A stretch of DNA of 63,140 nt from assembly GCA_041906885.1 (NCBI GenBank), contig JAYRII010000006.1:1-63140 (forward strand). Reading direction: 5' to 3'. A program made the position numbers and the translations under genes. Under the pieces are notes generated by a model. That model was not told where the DNA came from, ran no database searches, and saw only the letters and a program-made list of their open reading frames with translations. Below, piece after piece: positions 12,595 through 60,610 of this stretch (within the stretch, counting starts at the first letter, position 1; the number at the start of each line of letters is the position of its first letter). The stretch is from Candidatus Saccharimonadia bacterium (GTDB taxonomy: Bacteria > Patescibacteriota > Saccharimonadia > CAILAD01 > CAZGYV01).

Positions 12595-12702
12595 GACTTC
12601 TCCTAGTGCCGTCAGTCACGATAGAGAAAATTGTACAGTAAAATACACCTCTGTCAATCTGGAATTGGTGGTAAGAGAAGTAATTTTATATACTGGAACC
12701 CT

Positions 12703-13626
12703 ATGATATTCTTTTTTTACGGAGAAAATAGCTTTGCCATGCGGCGTGAAGTCGAGCGCATAAGGCGACATTATACTAAAAAATCAGGTGGTGATACAGG
12801 CCTAGAAATATTTGATTTGAGTGAAAAAAGTTATGATGAGCTCACTAGTTCGATTTCGATACAACCCCTTTTTTCCAGTAGCCGGCTAATAATTGTTCGA
12901 AATTTGGCAAAAAACAAATTGGCCCTGGAGAAAATTGATCAGCTGATGGCCGCTGTGCCAGAATCCACTATTTTGATTATTGAAGAGCGTGATATTGACA
13001 GGCGTAGTAAGGCATTTAAGTTGCTATCTAAATTGCCGACTGGTAATACTAAGGACTTCAAATTGCTTTCCTCGTCTCAGCTTGCGAGATGGGTGCAGTC
13101 TGAGGTTGAGCAGCTTGGTGGCAGGATTGATTCGGCGACCACGAATTTACTAGTAGATCGAGTCGGTCATGACCAATGGCAGCTTGAACAGGAGATTAAA
13201 AAGTTAGTTAGCTATGCCACTACAATCAGTCCCGAATCAATTAATAAGTTGGTTGTGGCCAATTCAGACCAGACAATTTTTATGCTAATCGAGGCGCTTG
13301 CCAATCGAGATATTAGGCAGGCTTTTGATTTATATCATAAGCTAGCGCGCGATGGCGTGGCTGATCAGCAGATTATCGCTATGATCAACTGGCACTATCG
13401 GAACTTGGCCCTGGCTTGTGCTAATCGCGGTGGGATCGGATGGGCTAAGGATTTTGGTATTTCACCATATGCCGCCCAAAAAGCTAGCAGACTAGCTCGC
13501 AACTTTGATATCGAGGAAGTCGCCTTAGCCTATAAGCACATAATTGAGGCTGATTTCGCGATTAAGTCGGGCATAAAGTCAAGTCAAACAGCGATAGAAG
13601 ATTTAATCTACCAGTTAACAAACTAA
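12703..13626 (+). CDS. holA: DNA polymerase III delta subunit
   Basis: Starts 'MIFFFYGENSFAMRRE', the typical HolA N-terminus, and carries a C-terminal delta-domain helix pattern. The tracked 12631 start adds 24 implausible residues. Confidence 0.75.
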   Translation: MIFFFYGENSFAMRREVERIRRHYTKKSGGDTGLEIFDLSEKSYDELTSSISIQPLFSSSRLIIVRNLAKNKLALEKIDQLMAAVPESTILIIEERDIDRRSKAFKLLSKLPTGNTKDFKLLSSSQLARWVQSEVEQLGGRIDSATTNLLVDRVGHDQWQLEQEIKKLVSYATTISPESINKLVVANSDQTIFMLIEALANRDIRQAFDLYHKLARDGVADQQIIAMINWHYRNLALACANRGGIGWAKDFGISPYAAQKASRLARNFDIEEVALAYKHIIEADFAIKSGIKSSQTAIEDLIYQLTN

Positions 13627-13679
13627 AATCCCCTAAATTAGGTCCCTTCATTCTGAGTAGTGTCCACAAGCTCACTCCT

Positions 13680-13747
13680 GTCATTCTGAACTAGTTTCAG
13701 AATCTACTCTTTACGTAAAAAAGACCCTGAAACTAGTTCAGGGTGAC
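13680..13747. repeat. full-length 68-bp double-hairpin palindromic element (GTCAT...GTGAC)
   Basis: GTCATTCTGAACTAGTTTCAGAATCTAC-n15-GACCCTGAAACTAGTTCAGGGTGAC. A half-site lies upstream at 13645-13656. Confidence 0.8.
13717..13747 (-). terminator. rpsT terminator formed by the right arm of the repeat element
   Basis: On the minus strand, CCCTGAACTAGTTTCAGGG is followed by TCTTTTTT. Confidence 0.65.
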
Positions 13748-13773: not shown

Positions 13774-14169
13774 CTATTTACTTTTTGAACTAGGCTTCTT
13801 CGCTGCTGGCTTGGCGGTAGACTTCTTGGCCGAGCTTTTTGGCGCGGCTTTGCTGGATTTAGCAGGCTTTTTACCAGGAGTGCCTGGCTTATCGGTACCA
13901 AATGGCTGCTTGGCGGCGGCATTGTAAGTTTTGGTCAGACGACTCTTTTTGCGCGCAGCGGTGTTCTTGTGTAGAGCGCCTTTCTTGACAGCTCGATCTA
14001 TCTCAGAGATTGCGGCAACGAGGGCAGCCTGAGCCTTGGCCGGATCACTGGCAATGGTGTTGCGAGCTTCCTTAGTCTTAATTCTGACGCCGGTTTTCAC
14101 CATGACATTCCTGGTGCGGCGTTTTTCTTGCTGACGAGCCCTTTTGATGGCGGATTTAATTATTGGCAT
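13774..14169 (-). CDS. rpsT: 30S ribosomal protein S20 with a Lys/Ala-rich C-terminal extension
   Basis: 'MPIIKSAIKRARQQEKRRTRN' S20 N-terminus and a tail 'KKPAKSSKAAPKSSAKKSTAKPAAKKPSSKSK'. Confidence 0.9.
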   Translation of the reverse strand: MPIIKSAIKRARQQEKRRTRNVMVKTGVRIKTKEARNTIASDPAKAQAALVAAISEIDRAVKKGALHKNTAARKKSRLTKTYNAAAKQPFGTDKPGTPGKKPAKSSKAAPKSSAKKSTAKPAAKKPSSKSK

Positions 14170-20079: not shown

Positions 20080-20149
20080 GTCATCCTGAACTTGATTCAG
20101 GATCTCTCGTGAAAAAGAGATCAGGGATTCTGAAAAATTTCAGAATGAC
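20080..20149. repeat. full-length 70-bp double-hairpin palindromic element
   Basis: GTCATCCTGAACTTGATTCAGGATCTC-(GATCTCT..AGAGATC hairpin)-GGGATTCTGAAAAATTTCAGAATGAC. Confidence 0.8.
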
Positions 20150-31049: not shown

Positions 31050-31475
31050 ATGCGACTTTATGAAGTGGCAGTGGTCTTGCATCCCGATCTAGAGATCGAT
31101 CTAGAAAATGCTAGCACCAAGATAGAGAAAATAATTGAGGGTGCCAAAGGTACGATTGTCAAGCGTGACAATTGGGGCAAACGTAAATTAGCCTATAAAA
31201 TCAATAAGCAAGATTGGGGCATTTATATATTCTACCAGGTGGAGCTAGATCCGCAGGCGGTAGCTAAGATCGAAAATACACTTCGGATTACTGAGGAAGT
31301 GATGCGTTATTTGGTCGTATCTTTGGACCACATTCGCTATATTCGGAAAACCCAAGATTCTAAAAAACCTAACCAAAAGCCTATTGCGAGTACAAAAGCC
31401 AAAGATGACATAAAGACTGAAGCTATCCAAGACAAAGAGGTAACCAAGCAAGAGACTAAGAAAGAGGAGAAGTAA
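31050..31475 (+). CDS. rpsF: 30S ribosomal protein S6 with a charged C-terminal tail
   Basis: 'MRLYEVAVVLHPDLE...NWGKRKLAYKI', in rpsF-ssb-rpsR synteny. Confidence 0.9.
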   Translation: MRLYEVAVVLHPDLEIDLENASTKIEKIIEGAKGTIVKRDNWGKRKLAYKINKQDWGIYIFYQVELDPQAVAKIENTLRITEEVMRYLVVSLDHIRYIRKTQDSKKPNQKPIASTKAKDDIKTEAIQDKEVTKQETKKEEK

Positions 31476-31477
31476 TA

Positions 31478-31945
31478 ATGGCAAAGGACTTTAATCAAGC
31501 AATTGTAATGGGAAATCTAACGCGCGATCCGGAACTACGCACCACACCATCCGGACAGTCGGTCGCTAGCTTTAGTGTTGCTACCAATCGCAGCTGGCAG
31601 GATCCGTCAGGTGAGCGCCGTGACTCGGTCGAGTATCACGATGTTGTTGCTTGGGGCAAATTGGGTGAGCTAGTTAGTAATTATCTGGCTAAAGGCCGCA
31701 AGGTTTTGGTGGTTGGTCGCTTGCAAACCCGCAGCTGGGAAGCACAAGATGGCAGCAAGCGTCAAAAAACTGAGATTGTTGCAACTGATATCAATTTTGT
31801 TGACCGAGTCGGTGAGGGTGGAGATTTTAACTCGTCGAGTGCAGCTAGTGCGCCTACCAAAGACAACACCAAGAAGAAGAGTGATGATGTGGTGATCGAG
31901 GATATGGGTGATGGGGAGATTAATTTGGACGATATCCCTTTCTAA
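31478..31945 (+). CDS. ssb: single-stranded DNA-binding protein
   Basis: OB fold 'NQAIVMGNLTRDPELRTTPSGQSVASFSVATNRSW' and an acidic tip '...DDIPF'. Confidence 0.95.
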   Translation: MAKDFNQAIVMGNLTRDPELRTTPSGQSVASFSVATNRSWQDPSGERRDSVEYHDVVAWGKLGELVSNYLAKGRKVLVVGRLQTRSWEAQDGSKRQKTEIVATDINFVDRVGEGGDFNSSSAASAPTKDNTKKKSDDVVIEDMGDGEINLDDIPF

Positions 31946-32122
31946 ATCTCGGTTTTTCCTCTTCGCGCTTTTTGCACTTTCTAAGCAGCATCTGCTTGTT
32001 CAACGTAGGTATACTACGCCTCGCTTCACAGAGTATACTTATCAAGCATAAGCCCATCGAAGCATTAAAAACCTCTTCCGTGAGTCAACTAGAAAAATAT
32101 TTAACTTAAGAGAAAGTAAACA

Positions 32123-32341
32123 ATGGCAGAATTTTACAATCGCAAACAGAATAGATTTTATTCAGAAAAAATCGATTATATCGATTATAAAGATATTAAG
32201 TTTTTGCAGCGTTATCTCACTAGTGTCGGCAAGATTGAGCCGCGTAAACGAACTGGCGCCTCGATGAAACACCAGCGCATGTTAGCTAAGGCATTGAAGC
32301 GAGCGCGTCATCTGGCTTTATTGCCATTTGTTGTTCGCTAA
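32123..32341 (+). CDS. rpsR: 30S ribosomal protein S18
   Basis: '[26 protein letters not shown]...[21 protein letters not shown]'. Confidence 0.9.
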
Positions 32342-32559
32342 TTGGGCGCACGCATGCCACGCCAAGTGGCGTTATGAGCTACGATGCACATGTCATTACA
32401 CCTTTTATGTAAACTGCATTCGAGCTCATCGTTCATACTTTACTTGGTATAGACATTCATTGCACCTCATTTTTATAGTTTTTATCCTGAACTTTCCTCA
32501 GGCTAAAAAAGTTTAGTCTTGATAGAAAACTTACTACCTTTTTAAAAAGAAAGGAAAAT

Positions 32560-33120
32560 ATGTACGGCATTACAGATCTGCGTAAAGATACTCTAATAGA
32601 TATTGATGGTGTGCCTTATCGCGTGACCGATTATTCACATACCCAGATGGGACGCGGCGGGGCGACCGTTCGAGTTAAGGTCAAAAATCTACTCAATGGT
32701 TCGATGCTAGAAAAAGTCTATAAAAATGATGAAAAAATCGAGCCAGCTTCGATCGAAAAAGTAACTTTACAGTATCTTTACCAAAACGGTAATAAAGCCG
32801 TATTTATGGATATGACAACTTTTGACCAGCAAGAAATTAACCGAGAAATGGCCACAGATGTAATAAAATTTATTCCTGAGGGTGGTGAAGTATCGGCTAT
32901 GCTCTACAAAGACCAAGTGATCGGCTTTGATCTGCCCAAAAATACACCGATCAAAGTCTCCAGCGCACCCGGTGGAGCGAAAGGTGACACGGCCACTGGT
33001 GCTACTAAAGCCGTCGAGCTAGAGACCGGCATCGAGATCCAAGTGCCGCTCTTTATCAAAACTGGTGATATGGTAAAAGTCGACACTCGCACCGGCCAGT
33101 ACCTTGAGCGGATGAAGTAG
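32560..33120 (+). CDS. efp: elongation factor P
   Basis: 186 aa with 'DGVPYRVTDYSHTQMGRGGATVRVKVKNLLNG'. Confidence 0.95.
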   Translation: MYGITDLRKDTLIDIDGVPYRVTDYSHTQMGRGGATVRVKVKNLLNGSMLEKVYKNDEKIEPASIEKVTLQYLYQNGNKAVFMDMTTFDQQEINREMATDVIKFIPEGGEVSAMLYKDQVIGFDLPKNTPIKVSSAPGGAKGDTATGATKAVELETGIEIQVPLFIKTGDMVKVDTRTGQYLERMK

Positions 33121-33135
33121 TTTATACTTAAACCC

Positions 33136-33990
33136 ATGGAATCAGTCTTGGCGGCAATCGGTGCTAATATTGGCTATGCGGTGGGGGATATTTTTGGGAC
33201 GAAGTCGTCACGAAAAATCCAACCTTTGCTGACCACCTTTTGGGTAGTGGTTTTTAATGTATTAATTTTTTCGCCCCTTGCGTTTGTCTTTCGAGACAAC
33301 ATAAGTCATTTTACTGTTTGGCATATATTTTTAACACTCACCTTAGCTATCCTGCTCAATTATTCTTACTTAAACTTTAATCGCGCTCTAGCTATCGGTA
33401 ATGCACCATTGGTCGGTGCGATTACAGGGTCTTTTCCTGCGCTGGTGGTGATCTTTTCGCTTATTATATTCAAAGAGTCAATCACGTTTCTACAGGGAAT
33501 AATGATTAGTCTAGTCATAATCGGTATTATTCTATCAAGCATAGATTTTCGTCAAAAAATTACAAAAGTACACGTTTCAATTCGCTACGCCCTGTTAACT
33601 CTTGCTGGCTGGGGACTGTACTTTACTCTTATCAAGGTTCCAATTGTCCAGATTGGCTGGTTTTGGGTTCATTATTTAACAAACATTCTTGGTGTATTCT
33701 TCTTTGGAGCGATTCTACTATCTAAACGTCAAACAGTATTTAAAAAACCTACAAAGGTACTTTATTTACCAGCCATAACAGCATTACTCACTGGTGGTGC
33801 TACTTTGTTATTTAACTTTGCGCTTAATTTTGGTAAAAGCTCTGTTGTGGCACCGATTGCTGGTAGCTATCCAGCTTTGTTTGCTATCTTGGCGTTCTTT
33901 ATTTTTAAAGAGAAATTGACTAGACAACAAATAATCGGCGTAGTTATTACTCTGGCATCGGTTATTGCATTGTCTTTTATAAGTGTTTAG
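33136..33990 (+). CDS. EamA/DMT-family transporter
   Basis: About 10 TM segments arranged as two EamA-like halves. Confidence 0.7.
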   Translation: MESVLAAIGANIGYAVGDIFGTKSSRKIQPLLTTFWVVVFNVLIFSPLAFVFRDNISHFTVWHIFLTLTLAILLNYSYLNFNRALAIGNAPLVGAITGSFPALVVIFSLIIFKESITFLQGIMISLVIIGIILSSIDFRQKITKVHVSIRYALLTLAGWGLYFTLIKVPIVQIGWFWVHYLTNILGVFFFGAILLSKRQTVFKKPTKVLYLPAITALLTGGATLLFNFALNFGKSSVVAPIAGSYPALFAILAFFIFKEKLTRQQIIGVVITLASVIALSFISV

Positions 33991-34018
33991 ATTAATCGGT
34001 AAGTAGAGGAATTTAATT

Positions 34019-34411
34019 ATGCCCGACAGAATTTCAGCCTTAATAATAAAGGATAAAAAACTGCTCATAGTCACAGGCTATGATGAAGATATCTGGTGGA
34101 CGCCAGGTGGTAAGGTGGATAAGGGCGAAGATCGCGAAATTGCTTTGAAACGTGAGATCAAAGAGGAACTAGGTGTTGACGTAAAATCCGCCAAAAAATA
34201 TCATGAGAAACTCGTAATAAATTCAATTACAAAAAAGCCGCAACAAGTCTACTTTTATCTTGTAAACACAACTGGCGAAATTAAGCCGCATTCTGAAATT
34301 ACAAAATTTCACTGGCTAAGTGCCGACGAAGCCAAGTCTAATAAACTTAAACTAAGCAATGTGATGACAGAAGTGCTGCTGCCCATGCTCATCCAAGACA
34401 ATATACTATGA
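34019..34411 (+). CDS. NUDIX hydrolase
   Basis: Nudix box 'GGKVDKGEDREIALKREIKEELGV'. Confidence 0.8.
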   Translation: MPDRISALIIKDKKLLIVTGYDEDIWWTPGGKVDKGEDREIALKREIKEELGVDVKSAKKYHEKLVINSITKKPQQVYFYLVNTTGEIKPHSEITKFHWLSADEAKSNKLKLSNVMTEVLLPMLIQDNIL

Positions 34412-34423
34412 TAAATTATAATT

Positions 34424-34987
34424 ATGGAAGCCAAATTCGAAAAAATATATCACGACATACAGGCTACAGCTGACAAGACCAAGAGGCGTCAATTAATTGG
34501 CAAGCTGACCTTGACACTGATTGACGCGTCGATTGCAAAAGAGATTGATTGGCGTTTAGTTAATCAATATGCACGCAAGCTAAAGCCTTTGAAAGGTAAA
34601 AAAGATCTGATGATGCGGGATCTAATCTGCGATCTAGAGCATTGGGATGATTACACTAGAGACCATGGCGAATTTGAACGGATTAGGCAATTCGCCCTCG
34701 ATATTTCGAAGGGAATATTTTATGAAGAGCTGACGACGGTGATGGTTTATTACGTCAAGCGCCAGGCTGACCGCACGCTTGGCGGTGTGAGTTATGTGGC
34801 GTGGGACGATCAGGGTAAATTATGCACGCGCACTACTAATTCATTGACGCAGACATTAGATCCAATATTGCATAAGTCCAAAAATATCGATGATTTCATT
34901 AGTCGCTTGCCAGCTAAAATTGGTGAGCTGGAGCTTTTTGATAAGACTGAGGTCTTGCAAAAATTTAGATTTGATATTGATGTCTAG
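34424..34987 (+). CDS. hypothetical protein
   Basis: 187-aa ORF. No motif recognised. Confidence 0.5.
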   Translation: MEAKFEKIYHDIQATADKTKRRQLIGKLTLTLIDASIAKEIDWRLVNQYARKLKPLKGKKDLMMRDLICDLEHWDDYTRDHGEFERIRQFALDISKGIFYEELTTVMVYYVKRQADRTLGGVSYVAWDDQGKLCTRTTNSLTQTLDPILHKSKNIDDFISRLPAKIGELELFDKTEVLQKFRFDIDV

Positions 34988-35198
34988 AGGTTGTCAAATC
35001 TTAGAATAATAAGCAATAAGGATACCTACTTTCTGCTATAAAGAGTACTTATATTGTTTAAAAATATAAGCAAATATTATTATTTGCTGGCTTGATTCTT
35101 TTTGATATTTGCTTCGAGTAGTTTGATTCACTTTTTTAGATTAAATACTTCCTCGGCCAGCACATCAGCGTCTTCAATGGTGCGCTTTTCTAAAAAGA

Positions 35199-35456
35199 TC
35201 AGTCTTCTTTTATATTATTTAGCTCGGTGTGGACTTTAGAAAACTCATCACGCGTCTCTGAGCGCAACTCAGTTCGTAACTCGGTGATATCTTGATTAAG
35301 TCCTGTTCGAACATCAGATATTTCTACTTTAACATTAGCAAATTCTTGCGAAGTCATCGTTGCCAGCTCGTCAATAGTGATACTTAGCTCACCGACAGCG
35401 TGATCAACAATTTCTTTAACATCTTTTTTGGTAGCGTAGCTTATTTTATTCTCCAA
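35199..35456 (-). CDS. short coiled-coil protein, truncated paralog of the 54240-54899 gene
   Basis: 'ATKKDVKEIVDH...' resembles 'LTKEDISQIKNLID...'. A C-terminal homologous piece continues out of frame at 35128-35193. Confidence 0.45.
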   Translation of the reverse strand: MENKISYATKKDVKEIVDHAVGELSITIDELATMTSQEFANVKVEISDVRTGLNQDITELRTELRSETRDEFSKVHTELNNIKED

Positions 35457-35574
35457 TATTTATTCTAAAGACAGACTAACTTTAATAGTAGCGAGCAAAA
35501 TACGAATACACAACAATTGAATTTGCAAAAAAAAAACACTTTAGTAGAATAGAATTAATTATTAGGAGATAAGA

Positions 35575-36249
35575 ATGAGTGAAATAATTGAAATGAATCC
35601 CGAGCGTGACCAACAAAAACCAAATCCAGTTAGTGAGTCTCGATTAGAGGCGGCTAAAGCATTGGGGTTAGAAATAGCTGATCAACCCACGTCATTAGAT
35701 GACAAAATCAAGGCTGGGTTGTCTGAACGATTTAGTGGACCAAATCCTGATGAGGCTCATAAAGAGTTAACTGCGAAATGGAAGAGCAATGCAGAGTTTA
35801 AAAATAATCAAATATTGAATTTTATCAATGAACATCAAAATCCTGATTTTACACCTAATAATATTGATCTTGCCAGGTCTCAAGGGGATGTAATCAAAGT
35901 TACTGGTGATGATGTCACGTCTTCCGAAATAGCTAGCCTGGAATCTAATGGTAAAATTACCGGTAGAGCATTAGCTCTCGAAGCACTCAGTGCTTCGGCT
36001 GTAAATACTGCTGGACAAGTTGCAGAAATATCCCCTCTAGAAATGGCAGGAGCAATTGAATCTGCCAGCTATGATGTTTTTGGAAATTCACAAAATGGCG
36101 CACCAGCCGTTATTGAAAGAAAGATAGTCACATCAAAAGGCACAATTTATGAGCGTCATTTATTGCAAGCCGGTGATGAGACTACCGCAGGCGTGCAAGT
36201 TGTTTTTGATCCATCTGAAGTGTTACCTAGCAGTACTAAATTAGCTTAG
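35575..36249 (+). CDS. hypothetical protein
   Basis: 224-aa ORF preceded by AGGAG. No motif recognised. Confidence 0.5.
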   Translation: MSEIIEMNPERDQQKPNPVSESRLEAAKALGLEIADQPTSLDDKIKAGLSERFSGPNPDEAHKELTAKWKSNAEFKNNQILNFINEHQNPDFTPNNIDLARSQGDVIKVTGDDVTSSEIASLESNGKITGRALALEALSASAVNTAGQVAEISPLEMAGAIESASYDVFGNSQNGAPAVIERKIVTSKGTIYERHLLQAGDETTAGVQVVFDPSEVLPSSTKLA

Positions 36250-36252
36250 ATA

Positions 36253-37443
36253 TTACTTAACATTAAACCTAAAAACAATCACATCACCGTCACGCACGAT
36301 GTAGTCGCGGCCTTCGAGGCGAACTTTGCCGGCCTCTTTGGCGCCAACCCAGCCGTTACTGCTTACAAAATCGTCATACGATACTACTTCAGCTTTAATA
36401 AAGCCCTTCTCAAAATCTCCATGAATGACGCCGGCCGCTTCGGGTGCGGTAGCGCCGATTGGCACGGTCCAGGCGCGAGATTCCTTTTCGCCGCTGGTGA
36501 AATAAGTCTGCAAGCCGAGCGTTTGATAGCCTAGGCGGATCAGGCTCTGCAGGCCCGATTCTTCTTGCCCGAGCTCGGCCAAAAGCTCGCGTCTGTCCGC
36601 CTCGCTCAAATCCATCAGTTGCTCTTCTGTCTTGGCAGATAAAAATATGGTTGGCAATCCTGGTACGAGTTCGGCTAATTGCTTCTTGTAAGCTTCGTCT
36701 GAGAGCTTAGCTTCGGCGATATTGAAAACATAGATAAATGGTTTGGCAGTGAGGAGCTGGAGAACTTTTATACTGTCTGAAATTTCTGGTATGTCATGCC
36801 GAACTTGTTTCGGTATCTCGATTTTTAAGTTTGTAGATCCTGAAACGAGTTCAGGATGACCATTTTTGTTGGGATGACCGTTATTTCTATTGGGCTGGCT
36901 GTAATGTTGGCTGACCAGTTCGCCTCGGTCTAAAAATTCTTTTATTTTTGCTAGCTCGGCAACTGTGGCGCTAGCTTTAGGGTTCGCCTTGCGTTCTTTT
37001 TCAAGCTTGTTTAAGCGATTTTCAACCGTAGCTAGATCTGCTAAACAGAGCTCAGTACGAATCGTCTCGATATCGCGCGCTGGGTCGATCGCATCATCGA
37101 CATGGACGACGTTATCATCCTCAAAGGCCCGTACGACTTGCACGATTGCAGCGCACTCACGGATGTGAGCGAGAAATTTATTGCCCAAGCCAGCTCCCTC
37201 AGACGCACCACGCACAATGCCGGCGATGTCAGTAAAGCTAACCGCTGCTGGGATAACTTTGGCACTTTTTGAAATATCAGCTAGTCTGGCGAGTCGCGCG
37301 TCTGGTACTTCAACCACGCCGACATTTGGCTCGATCGTGGCAAAAGGGTAGTTAGCGGCTAAAACTTTATTGCGGGTGAGGGCATTAAAAAGCGTCGACT
37401 TGCCGACATTAGGCAAGCCAACGATGCCGATAGATAAACTCAT
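36253..37443 (-). CDS. ychF: ribosome-binding ATPase YchF carrying an in-frame repeat-element insertion
   Basis: 'GIVGLPNVGKSTLFNAL' G1 motif and a C-terminal TGS-like 'RAWTVPIGATAPEAAGVIHGDFEKGFIKAEV'. It is 396 aa, against roughly 363 for typical YchF. Confidence 0.93.
   Translation of the reverse strand: MSLSIGIVGLPNVGKSTLFNALTRNKVLAANYPFATIEPNVGVVEVPDARLARLADISKSAKVIPAAVSFTDIAGIVRGASEGAGLGNKFLAHIRECAAIVQVVRAFEDDNVVHVDDAIDPARDIETIRTELCLADLATVENRLNKLEKERKANPKASATVAELAKIKEFLDRGELVSQHYSQPNRNNGHPNKNGHPELVSGSTNLKIEIPKQVRHDIPEISDSIKVLQLLTAKPFIYVFNIAEAKLSDEAYKKQLAELVPGLPTIFLSAKTEEQLMDLSEADRRELLAELGQEESGLQSLIRLGYQTLGLQTYFTSGEKESRAWTVPIGATAPEAAGVIHGDFEKGFIKAEVVSYDDFVSSNGWVGAKEAGKVRLEGRDYIVRDGDVIVFRFNVK
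36793..36860. repeat. full-length 68-bp double-hairpin element inside the ychF coding sequence
   Basis: Plus strand reads GTCATGCCGAACTTGTTTCGGTATC-n18-GATCCTGAAACGAGTTCAGGATGAC. An extra half-site lies at 36872-36880. Confidence 0.8.
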
Positions 37444-37514: not shown

Positions 37515-37766
37515 ATGAGTAAAACTATCAATATATCATTACCGGAGGAGCTAGTTAAGAAAATTGACCAGCTGGCCAAGAGCGAGTATGCCAGTCGGAG
37601 CGATTTTATTCGTGAGACGCTAGTGCGCCGCATCAAAGGCCAGCGAATTGTTGATGAATGGGGTGACGTGCTTGGTGAGTGGAACGAAGGCGTTGATTTG
37701 CGTGATGAACATGGCCGAGGCATGCCAGCTAAGCAACTGCTTAAAGCCATAGAAGAAATAAATTAA
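37515..37766 (+). CDS. ribbon-helix-helix (CopG/Arc/MetJ-type) antitoxin
   Basis: 'INISLPEELVKKIDQLAKSEYASRSDFIRETL' RHH signature. Confidence 0.8.
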   Translation: MSKTINISLPEELVKKIDQLAKSEYASRSDFIRETLVRRIKGQRIVDEWGDVLGEWNEGVDLRDEHGRGMPAKQLLKAIEEIN

Positions 37767-37772
37767 AGCCAG

Positions 37773-38018
37773 ATGAGTGACAAGGCAAAGAAGTTTCTAG
37801 CTAAGCTTAGTACTAAGGAGTTGGCCAGAGTTCGCGCGATCCTGAGCAAGATTGCTAACGATGATCGAGCAGGTCTTGACGTAAAGTCACTTAAAGGGAG
37901 GCCGGGCTATATCCGAATTCGAGTTGATCGGGTGAGAATAATATGCCTAAAAGTCGGTGGTGAGTACGAAGTGTTGCACATCACCAATCGAAACGAGAAG
38001 ACCTATAGGGACATGTAA
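37773..38018 (+). CDS. RelE/ParE-family toxin
   Basis: 81 aa with 'LKGRPGYIRIRVDRVRIICLKVGGEYEVLHITNRNEKTY', matching the ParE/RelE core pattern. Lies 6 nt after the antitoxin gene. Confidence 0.7.
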   Translation: MSDKAKKFLAKLSTKELARVRAILSKIANDDRAGLDVKSLKGRPGYIRIRVDRVRIICLKVGGEYEVLHITNRNEKTYRDM

Positions 38019-52669: not shown

Positions 52670-53290
52670 ATGATCAAAGCTACAAAACAAACCCGTCATT
52701 CTGGGTCACAAACCTGTCGTCCTGAACAGCGCTCGCTGACTCATCCCCGTCATTCTGGCTTGCGTGGCCGTCATTCTGAATTTATTTCAGAATCTACATT
52801 GAGTGCTAACAAGATCCTGAAACGAGTTCAGGATGACATTAGAAGTCAGGGTGATAACAAAGGCCGGGGTGGCGTTCAAATCCAAGGTAGCACTACCCAA
52901 AGGGGCTTCACGATCGTCGAGACGCTCTTTGTGCTCGCAATCGGCGGACTGATCTTGATAATGACATTCCTAGCGCTCGGCCAGACCAATCGCTCTAAGC
53001 GCGACGCCCAGCGCAAGACGGACTTTGCTAAGATCAATCAGAATATCGCCTCCTGGACAAATGAGCACCATGGTATATTGCCGACTGGTACTGCTGCAGT
53101 ACAGACTGCATCGGCACCAATACCCGATTCGCCAGATGGGAGTGGAAATCCATATGATGTGACCGCTACTTCCATCACTACTGCTTGCGGCGCTGGGTCA
53201 ACGAACAATATCTACTACGAGCGGACAAACGATAGATCATACAAAATAAAAATCTGTTTAGAATCAGGAGAATTCATTGAAAACCACTAA
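52670..53290 (+). CDS. pilin-like protein (G|FTIVE site); true start uncertain
   Basis: 'QRGFTIVETLFVLAIGGLILIMTF'. The only in-frame ATG lies about 75 codons upstream, and the ORF there reads through repeat elements. In-frame TTG codons also exist. Confidence 0.6.
   Translation: MIKATKQTRHSGSQTCRPEQRSLTHPRHSGLRGRHSEFISESTLSANKILKRVQDDIRSQGDNKGRGGVQIQGSTTQRGFTIVETLFVLAIGGLILIMTFLALGQTNRSKRDAQRKTDFAKINQNIASWTNEHHGILPTGTAAVQTASAPIPDSPDGSGNPYDVTATSITTACGAGSTNNIYYERTNDRSYKIKICLESGEFIENH
52693..52837. repeat. cluster of three half-sites plus one full 68-bp element (52770-52837)
   Basis: GTCATTCTGAATTTATTTCAGAATCTAC-ATTGAGTGCTAACAA-GATCCTGAAACGAGTTCAGGATGAC. Confidence 0.8.
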
Positions 53291-53975: not shown

Positions 53976-54160
53976 GTCATCCTGAACTTGATTCAGAATC
54001 TACGTTGAGTGCCAACAGATCCTTCGACTTCGCTCAGGATGACAATTGTCCTGACCCGCTGACCACTTCTGTCATTCTGATCCGGCGGTTGCCGGAGAAG
54101 AATCTACTCCCGCTACGAAGCAGATCCTGAATAGTGAGCCAGCGAGCACTGCTTAAGGAC
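53976..54160. repeat. one full 68-bp element (53976-54043) plus a second variant element
   Basis: GTCATCCTGAACTTGATTCAGAATCTAC-GTTGAGTGCCAACA-GATCCTTCGACTTCGCTCAGGATGAC, followed by GTCATTCTGATCCGGCGGTTGCCGGAGAAGAATCTAC... Confidence 0.75.
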
Positions 54161-54196: not shown

Positions 54197-54239
54197 TGAA
54201 TTACTGCAACGGTTATAATGGATGAAAGGGAAGAAGCTT

Positions 54240-54899
54240 ATGGCTCTAACAAAAGAAGACATTTCACAGATCAAAAACCTGATCGACACCATGGATATAT
54301 CACGTATACGCATGGCTATGCGCACAGATATCGAGGAGGTGATGGAGGAGAAGGTTGGTAAATTTGAGATCAAGATTGATCAAAAATTCGCTGATGCTGA
54401 AGTCAAGATCGACCAAAAGTTAGCCGATTTCGAGACGAAGATGTACGAAAAGTTCGCTATCGCTGAGGCTAGTGTAGATGAAAAGTTCGCTATCGCTGAG
54501 GCTAGTGTAGATGAAAAGTTCGCTATCGCTGAGGCTAGTGTAGATGAAAAGTTTGATAATTTCGCTGCCATGGTGCAGAGGCAGTTTGTGCACATCGATA
54601 CTAGGTTTGATAAGCTTGAAGCTAGGTTTGATAAGCTTGAGGCCAGAATGGACAGGCTTGAGGATAGGATGGATAAAATTGAGATCAAGGTTGGTCATCT
54701 AGAAGGGAGAATAGCAAGCATGGAATCAAAGATTTTGGCCATAGAAGCTGAGCTTGAGGAGATTAAAGAAGAGCTCAAGCAGATTAGTACTAGGTCTAAA
54801 GAAGACGCCGATTATCAAGGCTATGAAATCATCAAGCTGGGCCGCCGGGTGACGCAGCTAGAAGATGAGGTGGGTGAGCTTAAGAAAGCTATTAAGTAA
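54240..54899 (+). CDS. coiled-coil repeat protein of unknown function
   Basis: Heptad-like 'D.KF...' repeats, 3x 'EKFAIAEASVD', and 'TRFDKLEARFDKLEARMDRLEDRMDKIE'. Start taken at M7 of the tracked ORF. Confidence 0.6.
   Translation: MALTKEDISQIKNLIDTMDISRIRMAMRTDIEEVMEEKVGKFEIKIDQKFADAEVKIDQKLADFETKMYEKFAIAEASVDEKFAIAEASVDEKFAIAEASVDEKFDNFAAMVQRQFVHIDTRFDKLEARFDKLEARMDRLEDRMDKIEIKVGHLEGRIASMESKILAIEAELEEIKEELKQISTRSKEDADYQGYEIIKLGRRVTQLEDEVGELKKAIK
54447..54545 (+). repeat. perfect 33-bp x3 in-frame tandem repeat, plus a partial fourth unit
   Basis: GAAAAGTTCGCTATCGCTGAGGCTAGTGTAGAT repeated three times. Confidence 0.9.
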
Positions 54900-54923
54900 T
54901 CATAGGTCTCCCCGGCACATAGA

Positions 54924-55231
54924 GATTCTTCTCCGGCAGCTGGCGGAGAAGAATGACAGAGGTGGGCAGCAGTTCAGATTGACAGCGCGGAGCTGGCCTG
55001 CTTGTTACCTTGGGTGTAAAAGCTGTCATCTTGAGCGTAGTCGAAAGATCTCTCGCCACGGTCATCCTGAACAGCGAGCTTGTGAGCGCGTTTCAGGATC
55101 TCGCCGGCACGGTTGTCATCCTAAAGCGTAGTCGAAAGATCTGCTGGCACAAGATATAGATCCTGAATCAAGTTCAGGATGACAGGAGCAGAGTTAGATG
55201 CGGAATGACAGAGTAAGTGGTTCAGGACGAC
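54924..55231. repeat. dense cluster of at least 7 hairpin arms of the GTCATYCT.../...RGATGAC family
   Basis: Examples are GTCATCTTGAGCGTAGTCGAAAGATCTC (55025), GTCATCCTGAACAGCGAGCTTGTGAGCGCGTTTCAGGATCTC (55061), GTCATCCTAAAGCGTAGTCGAAAGATCTGC (55115) and GATCCTGAATCAAGTTCAGGATGAC (55159). Confidence 0.8.
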
Positions 55232-59498: not shown

Positions 59499-60413
59499 TT
59501 ATTTATTACCGGAGTGAAACTTCTTGTGGACTTCCTTGAGCTGGGGGTCGGTCAGGTGAGTGTAGACTTGAGTGGTCGAGATATTACTGTGGCCGAGCAT
59601 CGACTGGACGCTTCTGAGATCGGCCCCGTTGACCAGTAAGTCGGTCGCAAAGGAGTGGCGCAGAGTATGCGGCGTGACCCGCTTGGTGATACCAGCCAGC
59701 TTACCATAACGCTCGACTGAGCGCTGGATCGAGCGAGTCGTCAGCCGGGTGTAATTGCCATAATCTATCTCTGTCTTAGAGCCACTATAGTGTATAAAAA
59801 GCGGCTCAAAATTGTCAGTTCGGTCTTTGAGGTAATTTTCGAGTGCTATGACGGCATCCCTCGACAGATAAACGGGACGATCTTTTTGGCCTTTGCCGCG
59901 GATAGTAAATTCACCTCGTGCTAGGTTGATACTATTGCGGTTGAGACTGGTAAGCTCAGAGACGCGCAGGCCGCTGGAGAAGAGTAACTCCAAAATTGCC
60001 AAATCACGTAAGCCGATCACGGTTGACTTGTCAACTGCCTTAAATAATCTATCTACTTCGTCGCGCGCCAGGAAGCTGACCTGAGGGCGCTTGACAGTAG
60101 CTAGCTCGATTTTATCAGCTGGCAAAGTCTTGACGTTGCGTCTGGCCAAATACTTTAGGAAACTGCGCAAAGCGATCAGGTGGTAATTCTGGGTGGTCCG
60201 ACTAATAGTCCGGCCGTCTTCGGATCGAAAGCGATTTAGCCACTGGCGCCATTTGGTGATCATATCAAGGTCAATCTCGCTGACTTTAACCTCATCGCCG
60301 GCAAAGTCAAGGAAGCGATTGAGGTAATGAGAGTAATTTTCGATCGTTTTGAGGCTGCGACCCTTCTCGACTTCAAGGTAGTCGAGAAAATCGCCCATGT
60401 ATTCGGCAAACAT
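59499..60413 (-). CDS. tyrosine recombinase, XerC/XerD family
   Basis: Core-binding N-domain and a catalytic 'R...HTLRHSFAT...LGHSNISTTQVYTH' (R-H-R-H-Y pattern). Start at the ATG at 60413 rather than the tracked TTG at 60449. Confidence 0.85.
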   Translation of the reverse strand: MFAEYMGDFLDYLEVEKGRSLKTIENYSHYLNRFLDFAGDEVKVSEIDLDMITKWRQWLNRFRSEDGRTISRTTQNYHLIALRSFLKYLARRNVKTLPADKIELATVKRPQVSFLARDEVDRLFKAVDKSTVIGLRDLAILELLFSSGLRVSELTSLNRNSINLARGEFTIRGKGQKDRPVYLSRDAVIALENYLKDRTDNFEPLFIHYSGSKTEIDYGNYTRLTTRSIQRSVERYGKLAGITKRVTPHTLRHSFATDLLVNGADLRSVQSMLGHSNISTTQVYTHLTDPQLKEVHKKFHSGNK

Positions 60414-60492
60414 ACCTTTTAGGATAAGCGTTTTATTTGCAGGGTGCAAGCTCCTCTTTACTTTTGAACAGTTCCTCCTTCATCCTTAGCTA

Positions 60493-60610
60493 GATTCTTC
60501 ACTCCGTTTGAGAATGACAACATACCAACCGTCATCCTCAAGCAACAGTCGAAGGATCTATTCCCCCCAAACACCCATCATGTCATCCTGAACTCGTTTC
60601 AGGATCTGTC
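60493..60610. repeat. three hairpin arms of the same repeat family
   Basis: GATTCTTCACTCCGTTTGAGAATGAC, GTCATCCTCAAGCAACAGTCGAAGGATCT and GTCATCCTGAACTCGTTTCAGGATCT. Confidence 0.75.

Follow-up and report, generated by a model that had tools for sequence, protein, structure and literature searches.

The question raised by this locus is what kind of repeat has been copied through it, and by what means. The DNA concerned, referred to here as the window, is a stretch of 63,140 nucleotides from a Candidatus Saccharimonadia genome (contig JAYRII010000006.1), whose host can be assigned to the Saccharibacteria from its closest named YchF homologues, which are from Candidatus Saccharibacteria, and the element in question is a dispersed double hairpin of 68–70 bp, one copy of which lies between holA and rpsT. 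A preliminary description, made from the sequence alone, had recognised five such elements. We consider it probable that they are pairs and solo copies of the CGTC-tagged repetitive extragenic palindromes (REPs), of the CGTC-2 or CTGAA-stem type, and a variant of the "Ssn-related motifs" (SRMs) associated with a small GIY-YIG nuclease; this degree of confidence is meant for the whole explanation jointly, that is, for the CGTC-2/Ssn-motif identity, a gene-less cassette form, nuclease-dependent spread and orphaned copies taken together. The repeat family is already known and is here found in a Saccharibacterium. For CGTC-type hairpin repeats, among them dRS3/NTS of Neisseria and RPE-4 and RPE-6 of Rickettsia, a 2013 survey found no enzyme (PMC3733652), and work on Ssn in 2025 supplied a nuclease but no copying mechanism (PMC11893778).

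Anatomy and family of the hairpin elements

The window contains six double-hairpin elements of 68–70 bp, about eight solo units and several half-sites (Table 1), all in clusters and places that the preliminary description had named. Its five elements were recovered at their positions and with the two-hairpin architecture ascribed to them, but a sixth full pair and a decayed seventh have to be added, and the spacer between units measures 17–21 nt instead of the 13–18 nt first given; the solo arms and half-sites are likewise present, except that the one at 13645 is only a weak half-site. Approximately three quarters of all units fall in 52.7–55.2 kb, among pilin genes, and the tally of about 14 plus-strand and 13 minus-strand units gives no strand bias in the window.

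Each unit consists of a (C/T)GTC head, a palindrome opening AT (usually ATYCTGAA, a loop of 4–5 nt and TTCAGRAT) and a C-T-N tail, and a full element is made of two inverted units with their GTC heads outward (HH). The GTCAT...ATGAC termini reported at first do exist but are better read as the unpaired head followed by the first two stem pairs (A-T, T-A). In an alignment of 11 canonical 25-nt units the head is TGTC in seven, CGTC in two, and GGTC and AGTC in one each, the positions without variation being the GTC of the head, the A that opens the stem and the C just 3' of the palindrome. The stem has eight pairs, the first A-U in 11 of 11 units and the second U-A in 10 of 11; the loop has 5 nt in ten units and 4 nt in one, and after the invariant C the tail continues with T in 10 of 11 units and with a variable third base. 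The GTC head and the 3' C are also present in eight variant units, which keep the outer frame GTCATYCT...AGRATC and differ in the inner stem (CCGGC/GCCGG, a GAGCGAAGTCGA core, or a long inner extension). When folded as single-stranded DNA (ssDNA), the pairs form either two small hairpins or one long hairpin, with z between −2.7 and −6.3.

The string GTCATYCTGAA, with at most one mismatch, occurs 24 times in the window against 2.5 ± 1.7 times in shuffled sequence, and none of 100 shuffles reached 24. The paired, stem-preserving substitutions that had been proposed are borne out by the alignment: 98.9% of its stem cells are paired, shifting the partner column abolishes the pairing, and both sides have changed at three of the eight stem pairs (six cells, against 1.4 in shuffled alignments, with none of 500 shuffles reaching six). 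The covariance model R1, trained on the 11 canonical units (alignment A2) as a check suggested at the outset, recovers its seed units in the window at E of about 1e-7 to 1e-10, finds six non-seed units at E 0.006–0.03 (55060–55102 +, 54920–54958 −, 54014–54044 −, 60530–60562 +, 54070–54108 + and 60489–60519 −) and gives weaker matches at 55024 + and 55114 +, with no scoring site in the window beyond these. It also finds further units in relatives, the unit counts for which rest on R1 and on alignments. At gathering thresholds no Rfam family matched anywhere in the window.

It was the wide distribution of the exact unit across phyla that led to the identification with CGTC-tagged REPs. A scan of one genome per species returned at least 120 loci, the hosts among the matches listed being Saccharibacteria, other members of the Candidate Phyla Radiation (CPR), Bacteroidota, Sphingomonadaceae, Treponema, Elusimicrobiota, Dehalococcoidia, Rickettsiales and others, and at many of these loci a second unit, inverted and with another stem, lies 10–60 nt away. 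The view that this is one dispersed, copied and structure-preserving family, and not a set of unrelated terminators, holds, and the family has many copies in other genomes.

CGTC-tagged REPs were defined by Di Nocera, De Gregorio & Rocco (2013, BMC Genomics 14:522; PMC3733652) by an unpaired CGTC/TGTC head (TGTC and CCTC variants being allowed), a stem of 8–9 bp opening AT, a loop of 4–5 nt and a short tail; most of them are HH dimers, and in-frame intragenic copies include RPE-4 and RPE-6 of Rickettsia and dRS3 of Neisseria. RAYT (REP-associated tyrosine transposase) or other transposase genes flanked by the repeats were sought in that survey and none was found. The window units share the CGTC/TGTC head, an 8-bp stem opening AT, the 4–5 nt loop, a short unpaired tail, the HH dimers, the in-frame copies and the absence of a transposase nearby. 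Moreover, the CGTC-2 intragenic peptide RHSELVSGS of Sulfurovum SUN_0512 (PMC3733652, supplement) and GHPELVSGS of the window YchF are encoded by the same hairpin, a match judged by peptide. There are also differences: the tail is C-T-N and not the CCA consensus, the spacers lie at the short end of the 20–100 nt reported, and the published hosts belong to five phyla, none of them CPR, whereas the present host is a Saccharibacterium and thus CPR. A full-text literature search with exact hairpin strings and their peptide translations returned nothing relevant, and a search for work linking palindromic elements with Saccharibacteria or CPR found none.

The link to a small GIY-YIG nuclease

The NTS repeat of Neisseria (CGTCATTCCCGCG...CGCGGGAATC) is bound, as ssDNA only, by Ssn, a 94-aa single-domain GIY-YIG nuclease which does not bind the RNA form and which cleaves ssDNA only, the cut lying a few nt upstream of GTC (Chenal et al. 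2025, Nat Commun 16:2388; PMC11893778). In N. meningitidis the base C after the palindrome weighs most for binding and the 3 nt before the palindrome for cleavage. Motifs of this kind usually stand on both sides of ssn genes, in the arrangement NTS-ssnA-NTS, and in Neisseria Ssn and its motifs, which cluster near surface-protein genes, modulate transformation (PMC11893778). The window units keep both determinants, namely the GTC on which cleavage depends and the 3' C that governs binding, within the same GTC-palindrome-C frame, and the window hairpins too cluster near surface and pilus genes of a naturally competent organism. The stem itself differs, being ATTCCCGCG in NTS and AT(Y)CTGAA in the window.

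Since the published SRM search string misses the window units (see below), the link with the nuclease was tested directly. Among loci anchored on the hairpin only 3 of 195 carry a small GIY-YIG open reading frame (ORF), about what dispersal would lead one to expect, and the test was therefore reversed and anchored on the gene, using 80 metagenome loci that encode relatives of the small GIY-YIG protein of a Lutibacter locus (L070), one of the three, in which the gene is bracketed by CTGAA-type units. A GTC-hairpin-C unit lies within 300 nt of the gene in 66 of the 80 loci and on both sides of it in 43, with CTGAA-type units in 47; the density of units is 4.17 per kb near the gene and 0.23 per kb farther off, an 18-fold difference. 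In the common layout a plus unit stands about 40 nt upstream and a minus unit about 20 nt downstream, so that the GIY-YIG gene occupies the spacer position of a pair. The encoded proteins have 94–104 aa and Pfam GIY-YIG (PF01541) alone, the family label resting on this domain, the single-domain architecture and the size, while the CDD family that defines Ssn is cd10448; the nearest sequences in the PDB are UPF0213 proteins (E 1e-4).

The same arrangement is found in Saccharibacterial relatives of the window. In the closest YchF relative that shares the ychF insert described below (L288), a 98-aa GIY-YIG gene lies between rpsR and efp and between two identical HH units (GTCATCCTGAATTCATTTCAGGATC), and in three further relatives, L290, L291 and L292, this gene again fills the slot and again stands between two such units. 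L292 shares its NCBI assembly with L053, a locus that has a unit elsewhere. In L288 and these three relatives the protein is 98 aa long and PF01541-only, and R1, although trained on window units alone, finds all eight bracketing units at E ≤ 1e-7. In a further relative, L289, rpsR and efp are one base apart, and there is no GIY-YIG gene and no R1 match in 21 kb. Neither NCBIfam nor PADLOC assigns the Saccharibacterial protein a specific name; its homologues carry names from Curtissbacteria, Buchananbacteria and the "Patescibacteria group".

In L288 the last codons of the gene (ILK) and its stop lie inside the right hairpin, which is followed by a run of ...GGATGAC half-sites. Small GIY-YIG ORFs end within the right hairpin at L288:12374–12390, L290:2421–2450 and L292:6281–6310 and at two other loci (L237 and L223), where the last codons and the stop (TGA or TAA) come from its stem and loop or from the terminal ATGAC, so that gene and repeat are physically fused.

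In the window itself rpsF, ssb, rpsR and efp are found at 31050–33120, and the rpsR-efp spacer of 218 nt contains no nuclease gene; a decayed hairpin within it (TTATCCTGAACTTTCCTCAGGCT) lines up, column by column, with the cassette's left hairpin in the relatives (alignment A4). An empty slot with a decayed hairpin, together with a filled slot in relatives, indicates that an ancestral nuclease gene at rpsR-efp was deleted in the window lineage.

Spread of the pairs and the explanations weighed

In the explanation favoured here, the pairs would be the gene-less, non-autonomous form, reduced to the two ends, of a hairpin-nuclease-hairpin cassette of about 350 bp. They would spread through a nuclease-dependent process on exposed ssDNA, at replication forks or in incoming transforming DNA, which would leave no target duplication and would tend to pile up copies and half-copies locally as a by-product of repeated cutting and repair. 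No target-site duplication, another check proposed at the outset, was seen at the six pairs or at the nuclease cassette, the exact boundaries of which cannot be set by comparing L290 with the empty L289, as the two are too diverged. Given the deletion at rpsR-efp, the window copies may be orphans, persisting where they are harmless or useful and tolerated or reused there, such places being a disordered YchF loop, the leader or 5' region upstream in a pilin gene, and the site behind rpsT, where a copy would supply a hairpin with a T-run. The genome coverage of the nuclease search was the 63-kb window, and a nuclease gene elsewhere in the genome would change the reading of the copies as orphans.

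A more far-reaching form can be put forward tentatively, namely that the pairs are internally deleted copies of the ~350-bp cassette and belong to a class of their own, mobile or domesticated and as yet unformalised, with an ssDNA nuclease as its driver, which could shape the recombination of incoming DNA and write peptides into essential genes such as ychF. Saccharibacteria are naturally competent (PMC10633639), and if such a class exists, the system could influence in them which incoming DNA recombines, which would fit the pile-up of units at type IV pilin genes, and the window lineage would offer a natural "orphan repeat" state for measuring decay. The crowding of units around pilin genes parallels that of the Ssn motifs in Neisseria, a parallel and not evidence.

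Several points weigh against the explanation favoured here. No GIY-YIG or Ssn-like ORF or fragment was found in the 63-kb window (by regular expression, by phmmer with flavobacterial and Saccharibacterial queries, and by Pfam on small ORFs), and whereas the Ssn system has its cognate nuclease gene, the window has none and its ancestral slot is empty; recognition of the window units by a nuclease in the host organism is thus putative. The published SRM string, HGTCWYN(0-2)YYVSBRHN(0-5)WNVSBRGN(0-2)RNCYNB, has no match on either strand of the window because the CTGAA stem violates its YYVSBRH block, and by that search-string definition the window units are not SRMs. Nearly complete stem pairing fits poorly with long-orphaned relics. 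To our knowledge no copying mechanism has been demonstrated for any CGTC/SRM repeat, and we know of no strand transfer that a hydrolytic GIY-YIG nuclease could perform alone.

It is unlikely that the elements are instead primarily RNA elements, selected as terminators or as mRNA-stabilising 3' structures, with their family resemblance arising from function. The terminator-like match on the minus strand directly behind rpsT and one G-T (G-U) pair in a stem would suit this, and REPs in general are reported to be found chiefly 3' of genes and are believed to function at the RNA level (PMC3733652); the window units, however, point either way relative to transcription and occur 5' of genes, in tandem arrays and within reading frames, a T-run follows only one of about 20 of them, and the conserved positions are the unpaired GTC and the C, which a terminator does not need. 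Ssn, moreover, does not bind the RNA form (PMC11893778), and Rfam gave no match. The preliminary description had seen a bidirectional terminator in the copy between holA and rpsT. For rpsT this is plausible, as the right arm on the minus strand followed by CTTTTTT fits the intrinsic-terminator consensus, a pattern for which shuffled sequence gives an expectation of 1.1 matches, but on the holA strand neither hairpin is followed by a T-run. A secondary use as terminator at rpsT is likely.

Still less credible is a REPIN-RAYT system, in which REP doublets would owe their mobility to an IS200/IS605-like Y1 transposase, present as a single copy at another place in the genome, the kind of partner that had been suggested at first. 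The likeness is considerable, as two inverted hairpins with a short spacer can fold as one long hairpin in both cases, the copies cluster and no target is duplicated, and the enzyme gene is single-copy, is passed on vertically and has its own repeats on either side (here in the rpsR-efp slot of the four relatives), with orphan repeats remaining once that gene is lost. However, REPINs have a GTAG head and an HUH/Y1 transposase, whereas the unpaired head here is (C/T)GTC and the bracketed gene, in 66 of 80 loci and in four of four Saccharibacterial relatives, encodes a hydrolytic GIY-YIG nuclease, of about 98 aa in the latter; no Y1 transposase is present among the window ORFs scanned, and the 2013 search for a RAYT or transposase flanked by CGTC repeats had found none (PMC3733652).

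Very improbable, too, is a classical miniature inverted-repeat transposable element, that is, a deletion derivative of an insertion sequence with a DDE transposase and short terminal inverted repeats (GTCAT/ATGAC): inverted-repeat ends, small size and dispersed copies are as expected of one, but none of the six pairs has a target-site duplication, there are solitary and tandem single arms, which are not a product of transposons with terminal inverted repeats, each arm forms a hairpin of its own with a co-varying stem, and the full-length relative carries a GIY-YIG gene and not a DDE transposase. Finally, a set of unrelated ordinary hairpins or terminators alike by chance or composition, with which only the single terminator-like context would agree, has next to no probability and is refuted by the enrichment of the head string, by R1 E-values down to 1e-10 and by identical unpaired flanks and loops; the recurrence of the same 25-mer across phyla with partner units also speaks against it.

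What is new with regard to the CGTC-2 hairpins is that a CTGAA-stem subtype which escapes the SRM string is yet tightly linked to a clade of small GIY-YIG proteins, including those of CPR bacteria with genomes of about 1 Mb. A natural comparison set is at hand, with lineages that have both cassette and repeats, L289 with neither, and the window with repeats and the cassette deleted, and the repeat clusters at pilin genes occur in a phylum that is naturally transformable and genetically tractable. Together these make the copying mechanism and the idea of transformation control testable, the kind of element remaining the same.

The ychF insertion and the genomic setting

The window YchF has 396 aa, compared with 356–360 aa in most Saccharibacterial orthologues, the extra 37 residues standing at one site and being absent from most of these orthologues (alignment A1). 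As the exact 396-aa protein was found in 33 data blocks, the insert is not an assembly error. The insertion is common to the window and L288, in which the insert is homologous but longer and its distal arm decayed, whereas the site is empty in L289 and L292 and in the proteins P0004 and P0005; insertion polymorphism, which was to be looked for, is thus seen between lineages. More distant orthologues (P0030, P0082 and P0089) carry other inserts at this same site, at least one of a different hairpin type: the clearest, VILSGSEESL...DPSLRPQDD in P0089, is the translation of another hairpin type.

In the AlphaFold model of YchF, residues 183–216 have pLDDT below 50 and no secondary structure, and are located between the helical domain and the next strand of the G domain. 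The insert is, on this model, an in-frame palindrome tolerated in a surface loop predicted to be disordered, and it resembles the Rickettsia palindromic elements (RPE), which are likewise in-frame palindromes in conserved genes at fold-tolerant sites, although stem family and host phylum differ. A scan of the insert peptide and of hairpin-derived ORFs against NCBIfam (E ≤ 10), a library which we take to include RPE domain models, returned no RPE family and no match to the insert peptide. RPE-4 and RPE-6 correspond to CGTC-4 and CGTC-1, respectively (PMC3733652).

Table 1. Hairpin elements of the window and their immediate surroundings
Feature	Position	Strand	Description	R1 E
HH pair 1	13680–13747		left unit 13680–13704 (+), 18-nt spacer, right unit 13723–13747 (−); ssDNA fold z = −6.3; between convergent holA (12631–13626, +) and rpsT (13774–14169, −)	5e-10, 4e-9
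Terminator-like right unit of pair 1	13724–13744	−	8-bp stem then CTTTTTT, 30 nt past the rpsT stop; consensus match only	
HH pair 2	20080–20149		left unit 20080–20104 (+), right unit 20126–20149 (−, 4-nt loop); between a UDG-family gene and RNase J, both +	
Decayed hairpin TTATCCTGAACTTTCCTCAGGCT	32482–32504	+	in the rpsR-efp spacer	
HH pair 3	36793–36860		within the ychF frame (ychF 36253–37443, −); gene-strand translation GHPELVSGS...PKQVRHD	
ychF in-frame insert	36787–36897	−	111 nt (37 aa): pair 3 plus an extra truncated head GTCATCCC at 36871–36878	
Three truncated heads GTCATTCTGG, GTCGTCCTGAAC..., GTCATTCTGG	52695–52759	+	stacked upstream of pair 4	
HH pair 4	52770–52837		5' part of pilin-like ORF (52670–53290, +)	
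HH pair 5, heterodimer	53976–54043		right unit 54018–54043 (−) with GAGCGAAGTCGA inner part	1.4e-8, 0.016
Decayed HH pair (seventh)	54071–54160		left unit 54071–54105 (+), inner CCGGC/GCCGG stem; right unit degenerate	0.019
Solo unit, 11-bp stem (GTC ATTCTTCTCCG...CGGAGAAGAAT C)	54924–54958	−		0.014
Two tandem solo units	55025–55051, 55061–55101	+	second CTGAA-type with long inner extension	0.5, 0.006
HH pair 6	55115–55183		left unit 55115–55141 (+), right unit 55159–55183 (−)	2, 2.7e-10
Truncated heads ...GGAATGAC and ...CAGGACGAC	55198–55231	−	beyond pair 6	
Three solo units	60493–60519, 60531–60559, 60582–60606	−, +, +	between divergent XerC/D-like recombinase gene and mnmG	

The window encodes type IV pilins and a prepilin peptidase, and two of the hairpin clusters bracket the gene of a coiled-coil protein upstream of the latter. 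This protein (54222–54899, +) has 225 aa, is coiled coil throughout, contains an internal triple repeat (DEKFAIAEASV) and has only weak coiled-coil matches in Pfam. Exact-protein look-ups of holA and of the coiled-coil protein gave no match, probably owing to different start codons. In the pilin-like ORF that holds pair 4 the prepilin cleavage motif begins at residue 77 and the preceding 76 residues are almost wholly hairpin-encoded, the only in-frame canonical starts, as read from the sequence, being ATG 52670 and two TTGs among the repeats. The upstream region of the XerC/D-like tyrosine recombinase gene (59499–60449, −) is taken up by the three solo units at its side.

Among the Logan short-read contigs listed for the prepilin peptidase gene, seven of eight begin 338 nt upstream of it, at window position 55022 (position 1 of L293–L299). 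These contig ends within a hairpin cluster are a repeat-induced assembly break, as expected of a multi-copy repeat.

Beside ychF, at 37515–38018 (+), a small RHH/HicB-like antitoxin gene and a gene for a weakly ParE-like protein of 81 aa are conserved in relatives and likely form a toxin-antitoxin pair. The stretch 32001–36000 has the lowest GC content of the window (0.389, against approximately 0.45). Between efp and ychF it contains genes of the EamA and NUDIX kinds and others that are unannotated, and the gene order here differs from that of L288 and L292.

Arrays of truncated heads (...GGATGAC or GTCATYC...), spaced by about 20–30 nt, are found at L288:12170–12372 (−), L292:6310–6460 and, in the window, at 52695–52759 and 55198–55231. 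They adjoin full units and the nuclease cassette, and look like footprints of repeated local events.

CTGAA-type units also occur in three phage contigs, L157, L154 and L175 (IMG/VR 3300028845_000195, 3300010223_000008 and 3300009868_001351), the first of which encodes a large terminase. Each contig has 5–9 of them, all lying on one strand, the one antisense to its genes, and hairpins of other kinds with a GTC head, for instance GTCATTTCGAGC...GAAATC and GTCATTGCGAGG...CAATC, are interspersed among them. Insertion into, or selection on, one single strand would fit this strict strand bias.

Three variant units of the window, 54018–54043 (−), 55025–55051 (+) and 55115–55141 (+), share the core GAGCG(A/T)AGTCGA. 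It resembles what we take to be a very common GTCATCCTGAGCGAAGCGAAGGATC hairpin, presumably present in hypothetical proteins of many phyla as the peptides VILSEAKDL and SFASLRMT; the GCGAAGC mini-hairpin is unusually stable as DNA.

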